This document shows positions 3,285 to 52,001 of a DNA stretch of 64,000 nucleotides, piece after piece. Under the pieces are notes generated by a model. That model did no database searches, had not been told where the DNA came from, and saw only the letters and a list, made by a program, of their open reading frames with translations. The stretch comes from Promethearchaeota archaeon. Its GTDB lineage: Archaea; Asgardarchaeota; Lokiarchaeia; Sigyniarchaeales; SOKP01. A program made the position numbers and the translations under genes. Each line of letters starts with the position of its first letter. Position 1 is the first letter of the stretch. The stretch spans positions 32,001 to 96,000 of the forward strand of contig JBHLNF010000001.1 in NCBI GenBank assembly GCA_048937405.1, in the 5' to 3' direction.

Positions 3285-4241
3285 ATGAGTAATATAAAAG
3301 ACCTTAAGAAAATTCTTTTCTGTGGATTAGAAAGTGGAGGAAAAACATCAATTTTACTACTGTTAGACAAAAAATTTAGTCTACTATCAACTGTTAAACC
3401 AACAATTAAAGTAAAAAGAACACTTCATACTTCAGATCTTCTTGGTGCAAGTATAGTGCGTTGGGACTTAGGTGGTCAGAAAAGTTATAGAAAAATATAT
3501 TTGGGAAACAAGTCCAAATATTTTACCGAAATGCAATCAATATTTTATGTAATTGATGTTCAAACTCCCAAAAAATTTGAAGAAGCTTTAATATTTCTTA
3601 AAGATATTATAACTATCACTTCAGAATCACATTTGGATAATTTTCAACTCATAATATTACTCCACAAGTATGATCCAGATATCAGAAAAAATGATGATAT
3701 AAATCACCAAATAAAAAAATTGGAAAATGAAATTGCCTCAATTATTAAGGAGGTTCCTTTTGTAATTTTTAGGACTTCAATTTATGATGAACCAAGTTTG
3801 TTAAAAGCATTTTCACAGGGTGCTTATTATGCAACTCATAAATCCAAAATGTTTCAAACACTATTGAAAGATTATATGGGAAAAACTTACAACAGTTCAG
3901 CACTCTTATTAGACCAAAATGGCTTTATTGTTGCAAGTAGGAGCACAGAAAAATCATATCAAAGAATCTGTGAGGCGATTGCCCCACGATTAGCTCAAGC
4001 ATTAGAAAAATTAGAAGAATGGGATATCAATACAATAGATATAGTAACAAATGTAGAATTTCCAGAACAACAATCTGGATTTCAGAAGGAGGCGATTATC
4101 TTCTTACGAAAATTAGACATTGATGATATAAGACTATATTTAGTAGCTCTCTGTTTGAATAAGAAAGTGAAAACCAAATCATATGAATATTTGCCTTTAC
4201 TAGCAGATAATTTGAAAACATTATTGGAGAGTTTCGATTAA
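3285..4241 (+). CDS. Rag/Gtr-like small GTPase with C-terminal roadblock-like domain
   Basis: G1 GLESGGKT, G3 WDLGGQ, Rag-type G4 HKYD and G5 TSIYD; C-terminal SALLLDQNGFIVAS. Confidence 0.85.
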   Translation: MSNIKDLKKILFCGLESGGKTSILLLLDKKFSLLSTVKPTIKVKRTLHTSDLLGASIVRWDLGGQKSYRKIYLGNKSKYFTEMQSIFYVIDVQTPKKFEEALIFLKDIITITSESHLDNFQLIILLHKYDPDIRKNDDINHQIKKLENEIASIIKEVPFVIFRTSIYDEPSLLKAFSQGAYYATHKSKMFQTLLKDYMGKTYNSSALLLDQNGFIVASRSTEKSYQRICEAIAPRLAQALEKLEEWDINTIDIVTNVEFPEQQSGFQKEAIIFLRKLDIDDIRLYLVALCLNKKVKTKSYEYLPLLADNLKTLLESFD

Positions 4242-4457: not shown

Positions 4458-5648
4458 ATGATAGCAAATACTAATATAAATAATAATTATATCGGACCAA
4501 AAGCTTTATTTGATCCAAATTATATCCCACCATCCTTATTATATAGAAAAAAAGAAGAGAATTCATTATATTCAATTTTAGAGGATTCTATATCTGATGA
4601 GTATCCCCTCAATATATTATATCAGGGTATTAGTGGAATAGGAAAGAAAGTAATAGTGAATAAAGTCTTAAATGATCTTCTGATTGAAAACAAAGAATTC
4701 ATTCAAATAAATACAGTGTTTGTTGATTGTAAGGAAAAAAAAATTGAAGAATTAATTTTTTCATTACTAAGTGAAATAAATATCTTTTCAGATTTTAACA
4801 TCGATTTTCGATCAATCTTAAAATCAAATATCGCCCAATTATGGAATACATTTAAATTTATATGTGATAAAGTAGATTCTCGTTTATTTCTTATTTTTAA
4901 TAATATTGAATATCTAGCACCTGGGGTATTTAACAAATTCTTGCAATTCAGTAGAGAGACAAATATTACTTTGATCTCCACAGCAAATAAAATAATTAAA
5001 CCAGCGACAATAGATTTAATTTCTGAATTTGATTTTAAAAATAAACTAAACTTTTTTACATATCATGAGCTTTATGCTATTCTTAAACAAAGAGCTTCAT
5101 TATGCTTTTCTCATGAAATTGATAAAGATATTTTAAGATATATTACAGATTTAATTTGTGAGCAATATGTACCTGTTCCAGGAAAAGGAATTGAAATACT
5201 CCGTGATTTATATCCCATTTTAAGAAATAAAAACAATCACAATAAAATTGATTTATTAGAAATCTGTCAAGATAATTTTGAGAATTTTCAAATATCTGAT
5301 GAATTTAGTATGCTGAATTATCTTTCCGAAGAAGATATACTAAGTGTTATATTTTTAGATAACCTTTCAAACTACTTTATGAGTAAAACGAATTATTACA
5401 TCTCTTTCAAAGAATTGCAAGAATTATTTGAAATTACTTGTGAAACTTTGGAATATGAAAAAGATTATTATGAATTAGTCAAACTAAAAGAACAACTTAT
5501 AAATTTTGGAATAATTAAACCATCAAAAAGAACATATCAACATTCTAACACTTGCAATAACTATTCCACTTTAAAACATGATTTATTCTTCATATTAATA
5601 AATCCTAAACAAATTAAACTTATAATTGACACAATTTTCAATCAATGA
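4458..5648 (+). CDS. Cdc6/Orc1-like AAA+ protein with degenerate ATPase motifs
   Basis: LFDPNYIPPSLLYRKKE N-terminal Cdc6 motif; Walker A GISGIGKK; Walker B replaced by LIFNNIE; ELYAILKQRA; C-terminal wHTH-like region. Confidence 0.75.
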   Translation: MIANTNINNNYIGPKALFDPNYIPPSLLYRKKEENSLYSILEDSISDEYPLNILYQGISGIGKKVIVNKVLNDLLIENKEFIQINTVFVDCKEKKIEELIFSLLSEINIFSDFNIDFRSILKSNIAQLWNTFKFICDKVDSRLFLIFNNIEYLAPGVFNKFLQFSRETNITLISTANKIIKPATIDLISEFDFKNKLNFFTYHELYAILKQRASLCFSHEIDKDILRYITDLICEQYVPVPGKGIEILRDLYPILRNKNNHNKIDLLEICQDNFENFQISDEFSMLNYLSEEDILSVIFLDNLSNYFMSKTNYYISFKELQELFEITCETLEYEKDYYELVKLKEQLINFGIIKPSKRTYQHSNTCNNYSTLKHDLFFILINPKQIKLIIDTIFNQ

Positions 5649-5822: not shown

Positions 5823-8800
5823 TTGACATATATCAAGAAAATCTCAATGAGTGGTTTTAAGAGTTTTGGAGATAGAACAGTAACAATTCGACTTTCAAGT
5901 GGATTTACATGTATTGTTGGACCTAATGGTGCCGGAAAATCAAATATTATTGATGCACTTTGTTTTTCTCTTGGAAGAATGAGTAAAAAAACAATGAGAG
6001 CTAAGAGTTTAGAAGACCTGATCTTTGCGGGATCACGAGGAAAGAATCCTTCTCAAAGAGCCTCTGTTACCTTATATTTCGATAATTCAGATAACGTTTT
6101 TCCTGGTGGTCCTGAGGATTTTGAAATTACACGTATAATCAAGAGAGGTGGAGGTGGGGGGTATAAAATGAATGGAAAAAAAACTACTCGTCAACAAATT
6201 TTAAATGCTTTAGCAGCAGCTAATGTCGATCCAGATGGTAGTAATCAATTTGTCCTTCAAGGGAAAATTGTGGAGCTAACACATATGAATGCGGAAGATC
6301 GAAGGAAATTTATTGAAGAGTTAATTGGTCTTCAAAAATATGACGAAATGAAAGACGCTACATTAAAGGAATTAGAAAAAGCTGAAAGAGATTTAGGACA
6401 ATTCGAAGCAATTTTTAAAGAAGTCTCTGCTCAATTAAAGAAGGTAGAAAAAGAGAAAAATGATGCTTTAGCGTGGAAAGAAATTGATCAACAGATAAAT
6501 CTTTTAAACTCTCAACTGATTGCTTTGAAGATTTCAAAATTAAGAAAAGAAGAAGATGAATTGGAAGGAAAGATCGAAAATTCCTTAAAAATTATTGAAG
6601 AATTGCAAGAAAAAATAAACCGGCAAGAAGATATTTTAAAGCAAGAATCTCTTGTTATGGATAACATTCAAAAAACTATTTCAGATAAAGAAAAAGAAAG
6701 AGAGGAGATAACCGAAAAAATCACTCAAGTTAAAACAGAAATTTCCTCCAGTCAAACTACGTTAAATTTGGCAAAAAAATCAATTGATAAATTGACTCAA
6801 GAAATTGAAAACTTAGAAAGTCAACAAATGGAACTTGAGGAGGGACAAACTTTTGATTCATTGATAGAAACTGTGTCAAAAGAAATTTTAGAATATGAAA
6901 CTCACATAGAGGATGCTAAAAATGAAATTGAAAAAAGACAGCAAAATCAAGCTGAATTAGATGTCAAAATAAAAACTAGTGAAGATGAAAAATCCCTTTC
7001 CAATAAAGAAATTTCAAAGATACAACAAAGTATTTCATCTAATAACGCTCAAATTAAGATGCTTAGAGGAAATATTAAAAAAAATGAAGAAAAGAAGGAA
7101 AAATTAGAAAATGAATTACAACGGTTAAAAAAAGACGCGGAAAGTATTGATGAAGCCATTGAAGCAACGAAAAAAACAGAGTCAGAAATTAGAAAACGAA
7201 TAAACGACTTAAACACCAAGATTTCCAAAGAAAATCAAAACCAAAAAGATTTAGAAACTGAGATAAGCAATATTCAAACAGAAAAAAATCAATTGAATTC
7301 TAAATTAACAGATTTTCAAGCTTCTTTATCATCTCTGAACACCGAAATAAAAATGAATCAGGAGAATATACAAGAATTAAATGAAAAGAAAATTTCTACT
7401 GAGAAAAAAATCGCAGATTTAAGTAAAGGGAGAGATGCTGAGAAAGCGGTCAAAGAATTACTAAAAGAAAATGATACTATCAATAAAGAATTAAGTGAAT
7501 TAAAGGCTGTCTTTAAGCAAGAAAATTCAATTTTTAGGAAAAATGAGCAAGAATTAGAATTAGCAAAAATGAAGAGTCATTCCTATGAATCAGAAACTAA
7601 TGATAATAAATCAAAAATAGACAATATGAATACAGAATTAAAAATCTTCTCAAAAGAATTAACAAAATTAGAGCGAGAGAAGAATAATTTAGAATTACAA
7701 GTTGATTCCTTAAACGAAAATCTCACGTCTATTACCGGTGAATCGGAAAAATTACAAACCAAAAAAGAGAATGTTCAAAGACGTTTAGAAGAACTTTCAA
7801 AAGAAAGAGATAATTTTGTAAAAAAAATTGAGTCATCGGAAGAAGAATATGAAAAAAATACAAAAGATATCACTGGAATTCTACAAATTTTAAATATGCT
7901 TACTCAAAATATTAATATCTCAGTTGAATCGATTAAAAGTAATATACAGCAATCAAATGCAGAAGCTATCGAATCATCTGCGGAAGATTTTAAAAAATTC
8001 ATTCTCGATATTTTTGATATTATGAAAACTGTAGAAGATATTGGTAATGGCCAAGAAAGATCCACTGAAATGACAGATATGCTTAATTCTATCATGCAAA
8101 CTTTGAAATTGTTTACAGATAATGCTGATAGTACAATTAGTCAATTAATTGATAAAGTAAAAGAGTCTGCAGATGTAGAAATACAAACCTCAACATCTAC
8201 ATTTGATAGTTTTGTTCAAGATTTAATGGAAATCTTAGAAAATGTCTATTTATCATTAAGAAAACTTACTATGTCAAAAAGTCAAGAACTATACAAACAA
8301 TTGGAAGAACTCTCAGAAACTATTAATTCACAAACAGATGATTTCAATAAAATTGAAAAACAATTATCTGAAAGTAATATTCAAAAAAACCATTATTCCG
8401 AAAATCTTTCTGCCTATAATAAAAGACTCGAAGAAATTAATAAAAGAACTAACCAGTTAAATGAAAGAATTAAAAAAGCGAAAGAAGAAATTCATGAAAG
8501 AGAAGAAACTATCAGCAATAGACAACAGGAAATCAATAAATTAGATAGTGAAATTACCAAATTAAAGGAACTTAAAGATACTTATTGGGATAGAATTTCT
8601 AAGATCCAAGATGATATTGATAACAAACAAAAAGAACAGGAAATTTTGAGGGGTAAACTACAGGAATTACACGGGATTCAAAATTTATTTGACAATATCA
8701 CAGAAATTGATGAAAATGTTGAAAAATTGAATAACCTTATAACGGAAAAGAAGACTTTAATTTTAAATACTGAAGAAACCATTAAAACCATACAAGATGA

Positions 8801-10274
8801 ACAAAATTCCTTCCAAAAAAATATTGATGAGCTTAAACTTAAAAAAGAGAATTTCTGGGAGATTACCGAAAATCTACGAAAGCAAATAGATGAAGAAAAT
8901 AAATCTCTTGAAGATACTTTGGATCGATTAAGAGCACTTGAAAATGTTATGAGATTAATCACCTCTATCGAAGATATTAAAAAAGAAAATACTGAATCGA
9001 ATAAAAAAATTGAAGAGTGTCAAAATGAGATTAAAGGATTAAACTCTAAAGCAGAAGAAATTCAAAAAATTATTGATGAAAAACAACAGGTAATAGATAC
9101 TTTTAGAGATGAAAAAACTAAAGAGGTAGACGCACAAAAAACAGCCCAAAAGAATTTGAATAAATTGAATAAAGATGTACAGAAATCGCAAGGAAAATTA
9201 AATGAACTTAATAAAAATAAAGAAAGAGAACAAAAAATCATTGGATTAGGCCAAGATATAAAGGATACTGAAGAACAAATAGAATCAATTTCAAATGAAT
9301 TAATCAGCTTAAAAGAAAACTTGGATACTGTAAACGCAAAGAAAGATGAAAAACAAAGTGAAATTGACAAGTATACCCAAGAAAAGGATGAATCTTGGAA
9401 AAAACAAAAAGAATACCAAAAGGTTTTGACAGACTTAAAGTCAGACCTTTCCATGGAAAACTCTAAAATAAATAATTTTGAATCAAAAAAGATAATGTGT
9501 ACAGACCAAATTGAAACTCTATTCCAACGATCCAAAGAATATGGGTCATTACCCCCTGTAACCGAGGATCTTTCAGAACCAACATTACAATCTGAAATTG
9601 TCGAATCTACTAAGAAGAAAAAAGCTCTTGAGCCTGTAAATCTAAAAGCTATTGAACAATATGATACTGTGAAAGAACGATTCGATGAAATTGATATGAG
9701 ACGACAAACTATTCAAAGAGAGAGAAAATCCATCCTTGACGCTATTGATAAAATTGAACTTGAAAAAACTCGTACCTTCATGAAAGCTTATCATGAAATT
9801 AATAGAGAATTTAGCCGAATTTTTCAAAAACTCAGCCCCGGCGGGTCTGCTAAAATGCTTTTAGATCGACCAGATAAACCTTTTGAAGGAGGGGTTAGCA
9901 TCGAAGCTAGACCTCGTGGTAAAAAAATCTCAAGCTTGGAAATTTTAAGTGGAGGTGAAAAAACATTGGTAGCTCTCTCGTTTATATTTGCGGTGCAAGA
10001 ATTTTACCCAGCACCTTTTTACGTTCTAGATGAGATTGATGCGGCCCTCGATGGCCCCAATGTTCACAGAGTCTCGATGGTACTGAAGGAGTTTTCCTCG
10101 CAAGCACAATTTATGGTTATAAGTCATAGAGAGGAGAATATTGTAAATGCGGATAGAATATATGGTGTTTCTATGCAACAAAGTGGTATCACCGATATCT
10201 TTAGTGTAGATTTAGAGGAAGAAGCTAAAAGACTTCTTGAACTTGAAGATGTCGAACCAACCATTACAGAATAA
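5823..10274 (+). CDS. smc: SMC chromosome ATPase, unusually long, no recognisable hinge
   Basis: GFKSF, GPNGAGKSN, VLQG Q-loop, EPVNLKAIEQY, LSGGEK, LDEIDAALD, ISHR; TTG start with GGAG upstream. Confidence 0.92.
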   Translation: MTYIKKISMSGFKSFGDRTVTIRLSSGFTCIVGPNGAGKSNIIDALCFSLGRMSKKTMRAKSLEDLIFAGSRGKNPSQRASVTLYFDNSDNVFPGGPEDFEITRIIKRGGGGGYKMNGKKTTRQQILNALAAANVDPDGSNQFVLQGKIVELTHMNAEDRRKFIEELIGLQKYDEMKDATLKELEKAERDLGQFEAIFKEVSAQLKKVEKEKNDALAWKEIDQQINLLNSQLIALKISKLRKEEDELEGKIENSLKIIEELQEKINRQEDILKQESLVMDNIQKTISDKEKEREEITEKITQVKTEISSSQTTLNLAKKSIDKLTQEIENLESQQMELEEGQTFDSLIETVSKEILEYETHIEDAKNEIEKRQQNQAELDVKIKTSEDEKSLSNKEISKIQQSISSNNAQIKMLRGNIKKNEEKKEKLENELQRLKKDAESIDEAIEATKKTESEIRKRINDLNTKISKENQNQKDLETEISNIQTEKNQLNSKLTDFQASLSSLNTEIKMNQENIQELNEKKISTEKKIADLSKGRDAEKAVKELLKENDTINKELSELKAVFKQENSIFRKNEQELELAKMKSHSYESETNDNKSKIDNMNTELKIFSKELTKLEREKNNLELQVDSLNENLTSITGESEKLQTKKENVQRRLEELSKERDNFVKKIESSEEEYEKNTKDITGILQILNMLTQNINISVESIKSNIQQSNAEAIESSAEDFKKFILDIFDIMKTVEDIGNGQERSTEMTDMLNSIMQTLKLFTDNADSTISQLIDKVKESADVEIQTSTSTFDSFVQDLMEILENVYLSLRKLTMSKSQELYKQLEELSETINSQTDDFNKIEKQLSESNIQKNHYSENLSAYNKRLEEINKRTNQLNERIKKAKEEIHEREETISNRQQEINKLDSEITKLKELKDTYWDRISKIQDDIDNKQKEQEILRGKLQELHGIQNLFDNITEIDENVEKLNNLITEKKTLILNTEETIKTIQDEQNSFQKNIDELKLKKENFWEITENLRKQIDEENKSLEDTLDRLRALENVMRLITSIEDIKKENTESNKKIEECQNEIKGLNSKAEEIQKIIDEKQQVIDTFRDEKTKEVDAQKTAQKNLNKLNKDVQKSQGKLNELNKNKEREQKIIGLGQDIKDTEEQIESISNELISLKENLDTVNAKKDEKQSEIDKYTQEKDESWKKQKEYQKVLTDLKSDLSMENSKINNFESKKIMCTDQIETLFQRSKEYGSLPPVTEDLSEPTLQSEIVESTKKKKALEPVNLKAIEQYDTVKERFDEIDMRRQTIQRERKSILDAIDKIELEKTRTFMKAYHEINREFSRIFQKLSPGGSAKMLLDRPDKPFEGGVSIEARPRGKKISSLEILSGGEKTLVALSFIFAVQEFYPAPFYVLDEIDAALDGPNVHRVSMVLKEFSSQAQFMVISHREENIVNADRIYGVSMQQSGITDIFSVDLEEEAKRLLELEDVEPTITE

Positions 10275-46910: not shown

Positions 46911-47921
46911 ATGAGAATTTCAGATGATGAAAAAAATACAGAGATAGAATACAAGTTTAATGAATGGACTGTAAAAGATTTAAGGGAATTTGCTACAAAA
47001 AATAATATAAAAATTCCCTCAAAGTCTAAAAAGAAAGATATTATTGAGCTTCTTGAAGAGGTGGTATATCATCCTGATTTTGTTGATCGATCTCAAGAGC
47101 CAGAAGAATTGGAGGAAGAATTAATAGCTGAATTTGAAGATGAGGAGGAAGATCTTGCATTATTACGAAAAGAAAAAACTGAATTAAAATTCTGGCAACA
47201 ACCCCCTTATTCAAGTTTATTGGACAGTGAATTAGCAAAAGAATCTGAAGTTGCGTTTTATGATTTATCAAAATTAGTTGATACTTTTTTTGACAATATG
47301 CTTCACGAGGATTTGATTAATTATAAAATTTCAGGAATTGCGCTTAAAACATCTGCAACTTTGCATCATTATAAAATCTCCAGTATTATAAAAGAAGAGG
47401 AAGAAATTCAAAGAAGAGAAGAGTTAGAAAAATTCAGAGAAAGGCATGCCAGGGGTATTCCAAGAACCTTACCTCAACCAATTTCTCCTAAAGTGCAATT
47501 TGCAACTAAGGATGAATTATTTGATGCGATGAGATCTGCTATTATAGAAGTAATGCAGAATAAGGAAAAATTGAGAAGGAGGAAGATGAGAAGAGATGAA
47601 ATAAAACAACAAAGGCTTCAAAGGAAGTCTAAAGCACAGCTACCTAAAGAACTCCTAAAGCATATTAGTGGAAAGGAACAAACAATTGAAGAATTGCATG
47701 AATCGTGGTATAATAGAATAAAAGGTACAATTAACTTAAATAACGAAGAATCTAATTTTTTTGATTTAACAAATATTATTAAAGATGAAGAAAAAACTAG
47801 TTTAGGAAGGAAATTTTCTTTTGTAAGGATGTTTTTAGCTTTAATGTTCCTGTCTACAGGAAATAAATTGACGTTAAGCCAAGAAGAGGATTTTCGAAAT
47901 ATCTCAATTAATCTTAAATAA
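46911..47921 (+). CDS. scpA: Kleisin ScpA with extra N-terminal HeH/Rho-N-like domain
   Basis: ISGIALKTSATLHHYK kleisin N-domain; FLALMFL...LSQEEDF C-terminal wHTH; upstream of scpB; WTVKDLREFA...KKKDIIELL. Confidence 0.85.
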   Translation: MRISDDEKNTEIEYKFNEWTVKDLREFATKNNIKIPSKSKKKDIIELLEEVVYHPDFVDRSQEPEELEEELIAEFEDEEEDLALLRKEKTELKFWQQPPYSSLLDSELAKESEVAFYDLSKLVDTFFDNMLHEDLINYKISGIALKTSATLHHYKISSIIKEEEEIQRREELEKFRERHARGIPRTLPQPISPKVQFATKDELFDAMRSAIIEVMQNKEKLRRRKMRRDEIKQQRLQRKSKAQLPKELLKHISGKEQTIEELHESWYNRIKGTINLNNEESNFFDLTNIIKDEEKTSLGRKFSFVRMFLALMFLSTGNKLTLSQEEDFRNISINLK

Positions 47922-47963: not shown

Positions 47964-49031
47964 ATGGAAGAAAATTTAGATGAGGAAATTGATGAAGAAC
48001 AAGAAGACATCTCTGAGGATGAGAATATAGAATCAAATAGCGAAGAGAATAGTGATTTAATTGATAAAATAGAAGAAGCAAATGAAGAAGAATCAATTGA
48101 AACATTTGAACAAATGGACTCAAATGATTCAATAATAAGTGAAGATGAAATTATAGAAGAGCAAGATATGGCTACTGAAGATTTAGAAAATCTTGAAAAT
48201 CTGGAAGAACTAGAGCAACAACCAGAAACTCTATTAAGTGATGATTCTATTGAAGAACAAAAGACGGAAATTGCTGCAAACGCAGCCAAAGCTGCGTCAG
48301 ATAGCACCGTTCTTGATGAAAAATCAATAGAAATTGAAACTAGAACTATTCAGCGGAATTTTATTGAAGCTGCTCTTTATGCTTCTGGTGGGCCTTTAAC
48401 AATTGAAGAATTATCACATAGATTAGAATTTCCCAAAAAAGAGGTGGAAATTCTAGTAAATGAATTAGCTTTCGATTATTTAGAGCGTAAAACTGCTTTA
48501 GTGATTAATCAAGTTGGTGAAGCGTATCAAATGGGTTTACGACCAGAATATGTAGAAAAAGTTTCGAAATTTGCGAAGGGTGGGGGAATTGCTGAAAGAT
48601 ACTTAAGAACCCTAACAGTAATTGCTTTAAAACAACCAATTTTAAAATCAATGGTTATAAAGTTGAGAGGTACAGGAGCGTATGAACATGTAAAATATCT
48701 TCTTGATAATGGTTTTATTGATGCTACAAAAAAAGGTAGGTCACACGAATTAACCACAACAGATAAGTATGCGGATATGTTTGGATTACCACGAGATATT
48801 CGACAATTAAAAAGTGTTATGATATCTCAATTAGGAATAGAAGAAGGAGGTCAGATTGAACCTACGGGTGAAATTGAAGAAGGAGATCAGATTGAACCTA
48901 CGGGTGAAATTGAAGAAGGAGATCAGATTGAACCTACGGGTGAAATTGAAGAAGGAGATCTAAGTGAATCTTCAGGAGAAACTGAAAATGTGAGTCAAAA
49001 TGACTCTATAAGTAATAATGAAGAAGAATAA
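47964..49031 (+). CDS. scpB: SMC-Scp complex subunit ScpB with acidic N- and C-terminal tails
   Basis: IEAALYASGGPL, TLTVIALKQPI, LRG, TTDKYADMFGL. Confidence 0.92.
   Translation: MEENLDEEIDEEQEDISEDENIESNSEENSDLIDKIEEANEEESIETFEQMDSNDSIISEDEIIEEQDMATEDLENLENLEELEQQPETLLSDDSIEEQKTEIAANAAKAASDSTVLDEKSIEIETRTIQRNFIEAALYASGGPLTIEELSHRLEFPKKEVEILVNELAFDYLERKTALVINQVGEAYQMGLRPEYVEKVSKFAKGGGIAERYLRTLTVIALKQPILKSMVIKLRGTGAYEHVKYLLDNGFIDATKKGRSHELTTTDKYADMFGLPRDIRQLKSVMISQLGIEEGGQIEPTGEIEEGDQIEPTGEIEEGDQIEPTGEIEEGDLSESSGETENVSQNDSISNNEEE
48840..48960 (+). repeat. 36-bp coding tandem repeat x3 plus a partial copy (EEGDQIEPTGEI)
   Basis: GAAGAAGGAG(A/G)TCAGATTGAACCTACGGGTGAAATT units, no spacers. Confidence 0.95.
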
Positions 49032-51898: not shown

Positions 51899-52001
51899 TG
51901 GACCCGGCGGGAATTGAACCCGCGACCTCTTGAATGCGAATCAAGCTTAAAATTAATTTGGGACCTACCAAACTAATGATCTTCCACTGATCTACGGGCC
52001 C
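51899..52001 (-). tRNA. tRNA-Ala(CGC) with 31-nt intron at position 25/26 (51947-51977)
   Basis: Acceptor GGGCCCG/CGGGTCC with G3:U70 and A73; D-stem GATC/GATC; anticodon arm CTTGA-TTCGCAT-TCAAG; T-arm GCGGG-TTCAATT-CCCGC; 72 nt after intron removal; CCA not encoded. Confidence 0.93.

Follow-up and report, generated by a model that had tools for sequence, protein, structure and literature searches.

A conserved long SMC protein of Lokiarchaeia with a predicted four-helix-bundle apex and no detectable hinge

Results

The window analysed here, a 64,000-nucleotide stretch of DNA (G+C ~27%) from a Promethearchaeota archaeon whose genome comprises 4.47 Mb in 29 contigs, encodes a long SMC protein that is a real, conserved and structurally new SMC variant. 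Proteins encoded in the window find their matches in Lokiarchaeia/Promethearchaeota MAGs. It is a bona fide Smc-ScpAB-type protein that has no hinge and whose arms are about 1.5 times the canonical length, and it serves as the sole condensin-type SMC in many genomes.

The gene occupies window positions 5823-10274 of the forward strand, stop codon included, and encodes 1483 amino acids from a TTG start. Pfam SMC_N was matched at both the N- and C-terminal ends (E 8.7e-38), and the protein scored above the cut-off of TIGR02168 (626.5 bits; cut-off 567.35) and below that of the archaeal-type model TIGR02169 (643.4 bits; cut-off 729.4). A phmmer search of the PDB matched heads and arms only, with Pyrococcus Smc (5xei, 403 bits) as the top match, and no hinge-only chain was matched. 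All motifs of an ABC-type split head are present (GPNGAGKS, LSGGEKT, FYVLDEIDAALD and ISHR). The N-terminal head half (5823-6332, +; aa 1-170) carries the Walker A motif GPNGAGKS within columns conserved at 0.76-0.96, and the C-terminal half (9693-10271, +; aa 1291-1483) carries the signature LSGGEKT, the Walker B motif FYVLDEID and the H-loop ISHR. The paired SMC_N matches, the head motifs and the score to 5xei bear out the sequence-only reading of this DNA, which had described a canonical condensin-type head.

The two head halves are separated by an N-terminal coiled-coil arm of ~503 aa (6333-7841, +; aa 171-673), with no proline and few glycines, an apex region, and a C-terminal coiled-coil arm of ~470 aa (8283-9692, +; aa 821-1290). 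Proline is absent from aa 150 to 1243 and only seven glycines occur between aa 450 and 1050; the proline-free centre of ~1090 aa is compatible with helix throughout. An AlphaFold2 (AF2) model of aa 601-899, built from a 58-sequence alignment, places long helices at aa 601-709 and aa 820-899, as expected of long antiparallel arms, and this modelled part superposes on solved antiparallel Smc arms (5xg2, Z 13.1 over 221 aa; 5nnv, Z 12.0).

Other features of the window were recorded alongside. Three genes 5' of smc lies a small GTPase of the Gtr1/RagA and Arf-like, eukaryote-signature type (3285-4241, +), and the 396-aa open reading frame immediately 5' of smc (4458-5648) had no Pfam match at E<=0.001. 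An Rfam tRNA match at 51899-52001 on the reverse strand spans 103 nt against a 71-position model and is probably an intron-containing archaeal tRNA; ARAGORN reported no tRNA within the window.

No hinge could be recovered in the long SMC by profile searches. The Pfam hinge family (SMC_hinge, PF06470) gave no match even at E<=10. A custom HMM trained on the hinges of 29 Asgard SMCs, run with --max and all filters off, matched none of 12 long SMCs; as a positive control, the same model picked up, at E 5.8e-11, the hinge of a second, divergent SMC that the genome encodes. Both blanks uphold the earlier claim that no hinge signature is present, and the AF2 model is likewise all-helical where an alpha/beta hinge would lie. 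Other apex types fared no better. Rad50 models scored at most 110 bits against cut-offs of 700-1087, the ASRP (ClsN/Sph) model NF045487 reached 162.5 of the 300 bits that its cut-off demands, and the RecN model TIGR00634 scored 27.9 bits against 407.85, with a coiled coil of ~1000 aa rather than a short one. The zinc hook of Rad50/SbcC and ASRP is also missing, again as the sequence-only reading had it: the entire 1483-aa sequence holds no CxxC, and its four cysteines (30, 47, 1066 and 1226) are scattered.

Instead of a hinge, the centre of the protein is predicted to form a compact, all-helical, up-down four-helix bundle at aa ~674-820 (7842-8282, +). The AF2 model of aa ~600-900 contains five helices and zero strands at a mean pLDDT of 83.9, with helix bounds at aa 601-709, 713-742, 748-781, 784-815 and 820-899. 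The four bundle helices would thus be H1 (674-709, the end of the first long helix), H2 (713-742), H3 (748-781) and H4 (784-815). When the apex was folded alone, AF2 returned the identical four helices (pTM 0.71), although its five models varied, with mean pLDDT of 63-80. The bundle agrees in position with the segment singled out beforehand at 7860-8310 (aa 680-830), for which a diverged hinge fold at aa ~680-830 had been named as the contrary outcome; both AF2 models of this region are purely helical.

Structural comparison placed the apex among generic helical bundles. In a VIA-align search of 48,161 representative chains, the part of the model at residues ~75-221 (aa ~674-820) aligned to up-down four-helix bundles formed by a single chain; 6egc came first (Z 16.2; 138 residues at an rmsd of 2.0 A), ahead of bundles of the FAT, vinculin and talin types (Z 12-14). 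Foldseek with the apex gave TM scores of 0.6-0.75 to four-helix bundles, and with the 301-aa model it returned generic coiled-coil hairpins (the MukB elbow, chemoreceptors and dynein stalks). Neither VIA-align nor Foldseek matched the apex to a hinge, a hook or a MukB hinge, and a look-alike search of the ESM Atlas yielded unnamed clusters only, below 0.9. As the four-helix-bundle fold is generic, these matches describe architecture and not ancestry.

Conservation patterns are consistent with this model. On the arm segments flanking the apex (aa 640-673 and 820-860), conserved hydrophobic positions make up ~21% and form a one-sided stripe on one face of the helix, whereas within the apex they make up 32-41% and are spread round the helix, which fits a multi-helix bundle. 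Column conservation is 0.74-0.80 in the apex compared to 0.52-0.72 in the arms, and the polar residues Q709, D729 and D800 are invariant in the homologue alignment. The bundle is acidic, with 13 lysines and arginines against 26 aspartates and glutamates, for a net charge of -13.

Profile comparison shows that the bundle arose within the protein by tandem duplication of a helical hairpin of ~60 aa. Aligning aa 672-746 with aa 747-822 by hhalign gave a probability of 98.2% (E 3.2e-14) over 60 columns, pairing repeat A (7854-8033, +; aa 678-737) with repeat B (8067-8246, +; aa 749-808), and arm segments used as controls gave no repeat signal. The duplication is visible at the profile level only; a BLASTP self-comparison of the long SMC detected no internal repeats at E<=0.01. 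Equivalent positions of the two repeats include the invariant pair D729/D800, together with F723/F794 and S719/S790. The helical apex had previously been described as turning at IGNGQERS, and this octapeptide does lie where it was placed (8040-8063, +; aa 740-747). It is, however, a poorly conserved linker between the repeats of a duplicated four-helix bundle, with a pLDDT of ~54 and a length and sequence that differ among homologues, and so is probably not the distal tip. From the topology of an up-down bundle whose first and last helices run on into the arms, we infer that the linker would sit at the head-proximal end and that the distal tip would be formed by the tight turns at aa 710-712 and 782-783.

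The replaced region was located by a genome search with a canonical SMC and by TIGR02169 coordinates; pairwise BLASTP between long and canonical SMCs was also tried for this purpose and set aside, its coiled-coil alignments being shifting and ambiguous. In the genome search, aa 2-447 of the canonical SMC of a sister genus aligned to aa 2-446 of the long SMC, and aa 687-1193 to aa 984-1471. Approximately 240 aa of hinge and adjoining coil therefore correspond to a ~537-aa all-helical module, in which both arms gain additional antiparallel coiled coil and the acidic bundle forms the cap. The resulting arms of ~503 and ~470 aa compare with roughly 330 aa in the canonical SMC. A shorter form found in group f4 of the order (P0141, genome G280, L025:4798-8685, minus strand; 1296 aa) is without a ~97-aa block of the N-terminal arm (aa 491-587) and a ~90-aa block of the C-terminal arm (aa 869-958), which shows that arm length has been altered by matched blocks on both arms.

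Genes for a kleisin and a kite lie further along the window, as had been noted from the sequence: a ScpA-like kleisin of 336 aa with an N-terminal SAP/HeH/Rho_N-like motif (46911-47921, +) and a ScpB kite of the "long" type with 355 aa (47964-49031, +; ScpB domain at aa 133-283). They are separated from smc by ~36.6 kb in this genome (window 10275-46910), so their pairing with the long SMC rests on synteny in relatives. In five genomes (G135, G138, G143, G147 and G149), smc, the ScpA-like orthologue and the long ScpB are directly adjacent in that order. The spacing from apex to ScpB is 3-4 kb in most congeners. This association agrees with the initial view of a kleisin- and kite-associated SMC, the orthologous genes forming a tight operon in relatives. 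Intermediate gaps of 10-21 kb in several congeners suggest an insertion-prone site; the interval in the window contains a T2SSE-type ATPase, a type IV prepilin peptidase, large TPR proteins and a TFIIB gene. In the kleisin, aa ~16-50 resemble SAP/HeH/LEM/Rho_N motifs, with all scores below cut-off (Ish1 25, Rho_N 21.7 and HeH 20 bits), which hints at a putative DNA-binding extension.

The canonical SMC of relatives is adjoined by its own short ScpB. The ScpB proteins that accompany the long SMC have 293-355 aa, including a ~130-aa N-terminal extension, and those that accompany the canonical SMC have ~190-230 aa. In the order (153 genomes), only genomes with a canonical SMC were found to hold a second ScpB, which scores lower; the converse has exceptions, as genus g7 and several incomplete bins with a strong-hinge SMC show one ScpB or none. 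A single ScpB is present in the window's genus. This co-loss of the canonical SMC and the short ScpB supports the existence of two separate complexes.

More than 120 homologues share 66-87% identity with the apex region (aa 640-880), and those that are complete measure ~1470-1487 aa; in a set of 1.84 billion proteins clustered at 50% identity, the region matches no more than 33 representatives. Across 399 genomes of the phylum, the apex was found in 129 of the 152 other genomes of the window's order (112 of 133 in group f1, the one genome of f2, all 14 of f3 and two of four in f4) and in four genomes outside it. Two of these four gave weak matches (G285, E 2.1e-4; G305, E 2.5e-5). The other two, G063 and G039, belong to other families of the phylum, and their matches most likely reflect contamination during binning: that in G063 lies on an 8.6-kb contig, placed inside the f3 clade of the tree and nearly identical to f3 genus g15, and those in G039 are three fragments on short contigs that share 76-83% identity with the window's genus.

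An SMC_hinge search of these same genomes showed that f3, f4, the f1 genera g2, g3, g7 and g10 and part of g11 also encode an SMC of ~1200 aa whose hinge match is strong (E 1e-25 to 1e-35). Three named genomes, Promethearchaeum syntrophicum MK-D1 (G143), Ca. Lokiarchaeum ossiferum Loki-B35 (G138) and Ca. Harpocratesius repetitus (G135), each carry the long SMC, the canonical SMC and two ScpB genes. The long SMC is located near 289-302 kb of NZ_CP042905.2 in MK-D1 and near 3.394-3.406 Mb of CP104013.1 in L. ossiferum. The protein is thus not simply the Smc of the cell with an altered hinge; many relatives have it as a paralogue beside a canonical hinge SMC. In the window's genus, a strong-hinge SMC was found in 0 of 53 genomes, and only a weak hinge match remains there, as in g4, g5, g6, g8, g9, g12 and g13. 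A genome search detected no third SMC or remnant of a canonical SMC in the window's genome. Loss of both the canonical hinge SMC and the short ScpB that goes with it has left the long SMC as the sole condensin-type SMC of this genus. The sequence-only reading had asked whether the genome encodes another, hinge-bearing Smc; one is present, but only a divergent one, and it accounts for the weak hinge match.

This divergent second SMC (P0002) lies outside the window at G000:C7:538746-542090 on the minus strand (L011:6693-10160, minus strand). It has 1155 aa, a weak but above-threshold SMC_hinge match of 25-30 bits and the Walker B sequence LDEPGMFLDE, and is probably the "SMC5/6-related" archaeal SMC. 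Unannotated open reading frames of 416, 215 and 187 aa flank it and could be a kleisin and kites.

In a tree of the head domains, the long SMCs group in a single clade (SH-aLRT 100) and the canonical SMCs of the order in a second (98), with deeper branches unresolved, including whether the long clade is sister to the canonical SMCs of the order. An AU test did not reject uniting the two clades (p 0.495), so a duplication at the base of the order that would have given rise to both proteins is compatible with these data.

The apex module was also detected outside SMC proteins. A family of ~930-1180-aa non-ATPase proteins without Pfam match (P0142-P0145 and P0149), found in f3 only, is encoded for example at L054:5997-9122 (minus strand; G135) and L055:7688-11044 (plus strand; L. 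ossiferum), and its members contain the whole apex module twice in tandem (in P0142, aa 48-260 and 297-521). Conserved 5' neighbours of this gene encode a ~470-aa unknown protein and a ~360-aa protein, of which only the G135 copy approaches the JAB/MPN model (22.3 bits against a cut-off of 22.5). The gene context at the f3 loci gave no functional clue.

Discussion

We favour, with moderate confidence, the reading that the long SMC is the ATPase of a second, order-specific Smc-ScpAB complex in which the bundle replaces the hinge and joins the two arms by bundle-bundle contact. Such a complex would function like Smc-ScpAB, with ATP-driven head engagement, a ScpA bridge and a ScpB dimer, and the conserved bundle would assume the structural role of the hinge through a tip-to-tip contact joining two ~75-nm arms, by analogy to RecN tips and the Rad50 hook. 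The acidity of the apex implies that the heads and the HeH-kleisin, rather than the apex, would have to contact DNA. We infer that the protomers may pair through the bundle in place of the hinge. Pairing is favoured by an apex conserved above the arms, by its invariant polar residues and by the fact that apex pairing is, to our knowledge, common to all SMC-family proteins characterised so far. It is disfavoured by the AF2 model, which closes the bundle within one chain and buries its hydrophobic faces, and by the strong acidity of the bundle, as two bundles of net charge -13 would be mutually repulsive unless counter-ions or a partner intervened. A wider proposal, that the duplicated bundle joins the extra-long arms throughout the order and that the hinge-less complex suffices as the sole condensin-type SMC, is offered more tentatively; its second part follows from the several lineages, the window's genus included, that have discarded the canonical hinge SMC.

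The self-contained, acidic bundle of the AF2 model could alternatively be an intramolecular cap, with the protomers joined at the heads only, through ATP engagement and the ScpA neck-cap bridge, in an open V that would hold DNA in the head and kleisin compartment. The duplication fits such a cap as well, as it could have internalised an ancestral intermolecular bundle. Were the bundle no more than a cap, the apex would not need to be better conserved than the arms or to keep invariant polar residues, and such a cap would depart from the apex pairing generally known for SMC-family proteins, and for these reasons we consider it unlikely. Somewhat less probable still is that the bundle serves as a docking platform for another protein, such as basic chromatin proteins or the ~1000-aa tandem-module non-ATPase protein of f3. 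The acidic surface, the twofold occurrence of the module in P0142-like proteins and the protein-binding habit of the nearest natural folds (FAT and vinculin/talin bundles), generic as this fold is, all speak for docking; the long SMC has no syntenic partner gene besides scpAB, and the tandem-module protein occurs in f3 only while the long SMC is order-wide, so it is not a universal partner.

That the centre is a hinge diverged past sequence recognition is suggested by its position in the protein and by nothing else, and we regard it as highly improbable given zero beta strands in both AF2 models, structure searches that yielded only helical bundles and coiled coils, and a lineage-specific HMM that was blank here yet detected the far more divergent hinge of P0002. 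An assembly artefact, pseudogene or fusion has nothing in its favour and is hardly credible, as more than 120 genomes, three of which consist of one contig (two of these deposited as complete chromosomes), carry an uninterrupted frame of ~1470-1500 aa with strong conservation along the whole length.

The hinge is regarded as one of the features that define SMC proteins and as important to their mechanism: it dimerises the protomers and has been implicated in DNA binding and DNA entry. If the wider, more tentative proposal above is true, SMC-ScpAB can function in nature without the hinge fold, and the case comes from the Asgard archaea, the closest archaeal relatives of eukaryotes. MK-D1 and L. 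ossiferum, both of them in culture, encode both the long and the canonical SMC, which makes a biochemical comparison of the two designs possible; such a comparison could address what the hinge is for and how arm length is coupled to the type of apex.

Among known systems, RecN pairs via its coiled-coil tips and Rad50/SbcC via a zinc hook. The long SMC resembles both in having a non-hinge apex on an antiparallel coiled coil, and they supply the working analogy for tip pairing; it differs from them in that it has no CxxC, its heads are of the SMC type and its partners are ScpAB rather than Mre11. The predicted fold of aa ~674-820 resembles up-down four-helix bundles in general, both designed (6egc and 8tn1) and natural (FAT, p130Cas, vinculin and talin), at Z 13-16, but with sequence identities of 5-10%; this fold arises often, and the common arrangement implies neither homology nor function.

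Closer to home, the ASRP, ClsN and Sph proteins are archaea-specific SMC-related proteins with a zinc hook (PMC9389158), and the long SMC is like them an archaeal member of the SMC superfamily without a canonical hinge, but one with no CxxC. Hinge-less SMC homologues have been described in marine Actinobacteria (PMC12153180, 2025); these belong to another domain of life, and the portion of that article available to us mentions no four-helix apex, long arms or ScpAB link. Two SMC complexes, one canonical and one SMC5/6-related, have been reported in Asgard and TACK archaea (PMC8665677; bioRxiv 10.1101/2024.01.07.573240), and the main texts of these two reports, as far as accessible, mention no hinge-less form, no Lokiarchaeia and no third SMC. 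Our literature search found no description of a hinge-less Asgard or Lokiarchaeial SMC, which is not proof that none has been published.

Also close in design is the prokaryotic Smc-ScpAB complex itself, as represented by Pyrococcus Smc (5xei and 4i99), B. subtilis Smc and the models TIGR02168 and TIGR02169, with which the long SMC shares its head sequence and motifs, its antiparallel arms and, in relatives, an operon with ScpA and ScpB. It departs from that complex in lacking the alpha/beta hinge and having a duplicated four-helix bundle instead, in the N-terminal HeH/SAP-like motif of its kleisin and the greater length of its ScpB, in its longer arms, and in being, in many genomes, a paralogue present alongside a canonical Smc.
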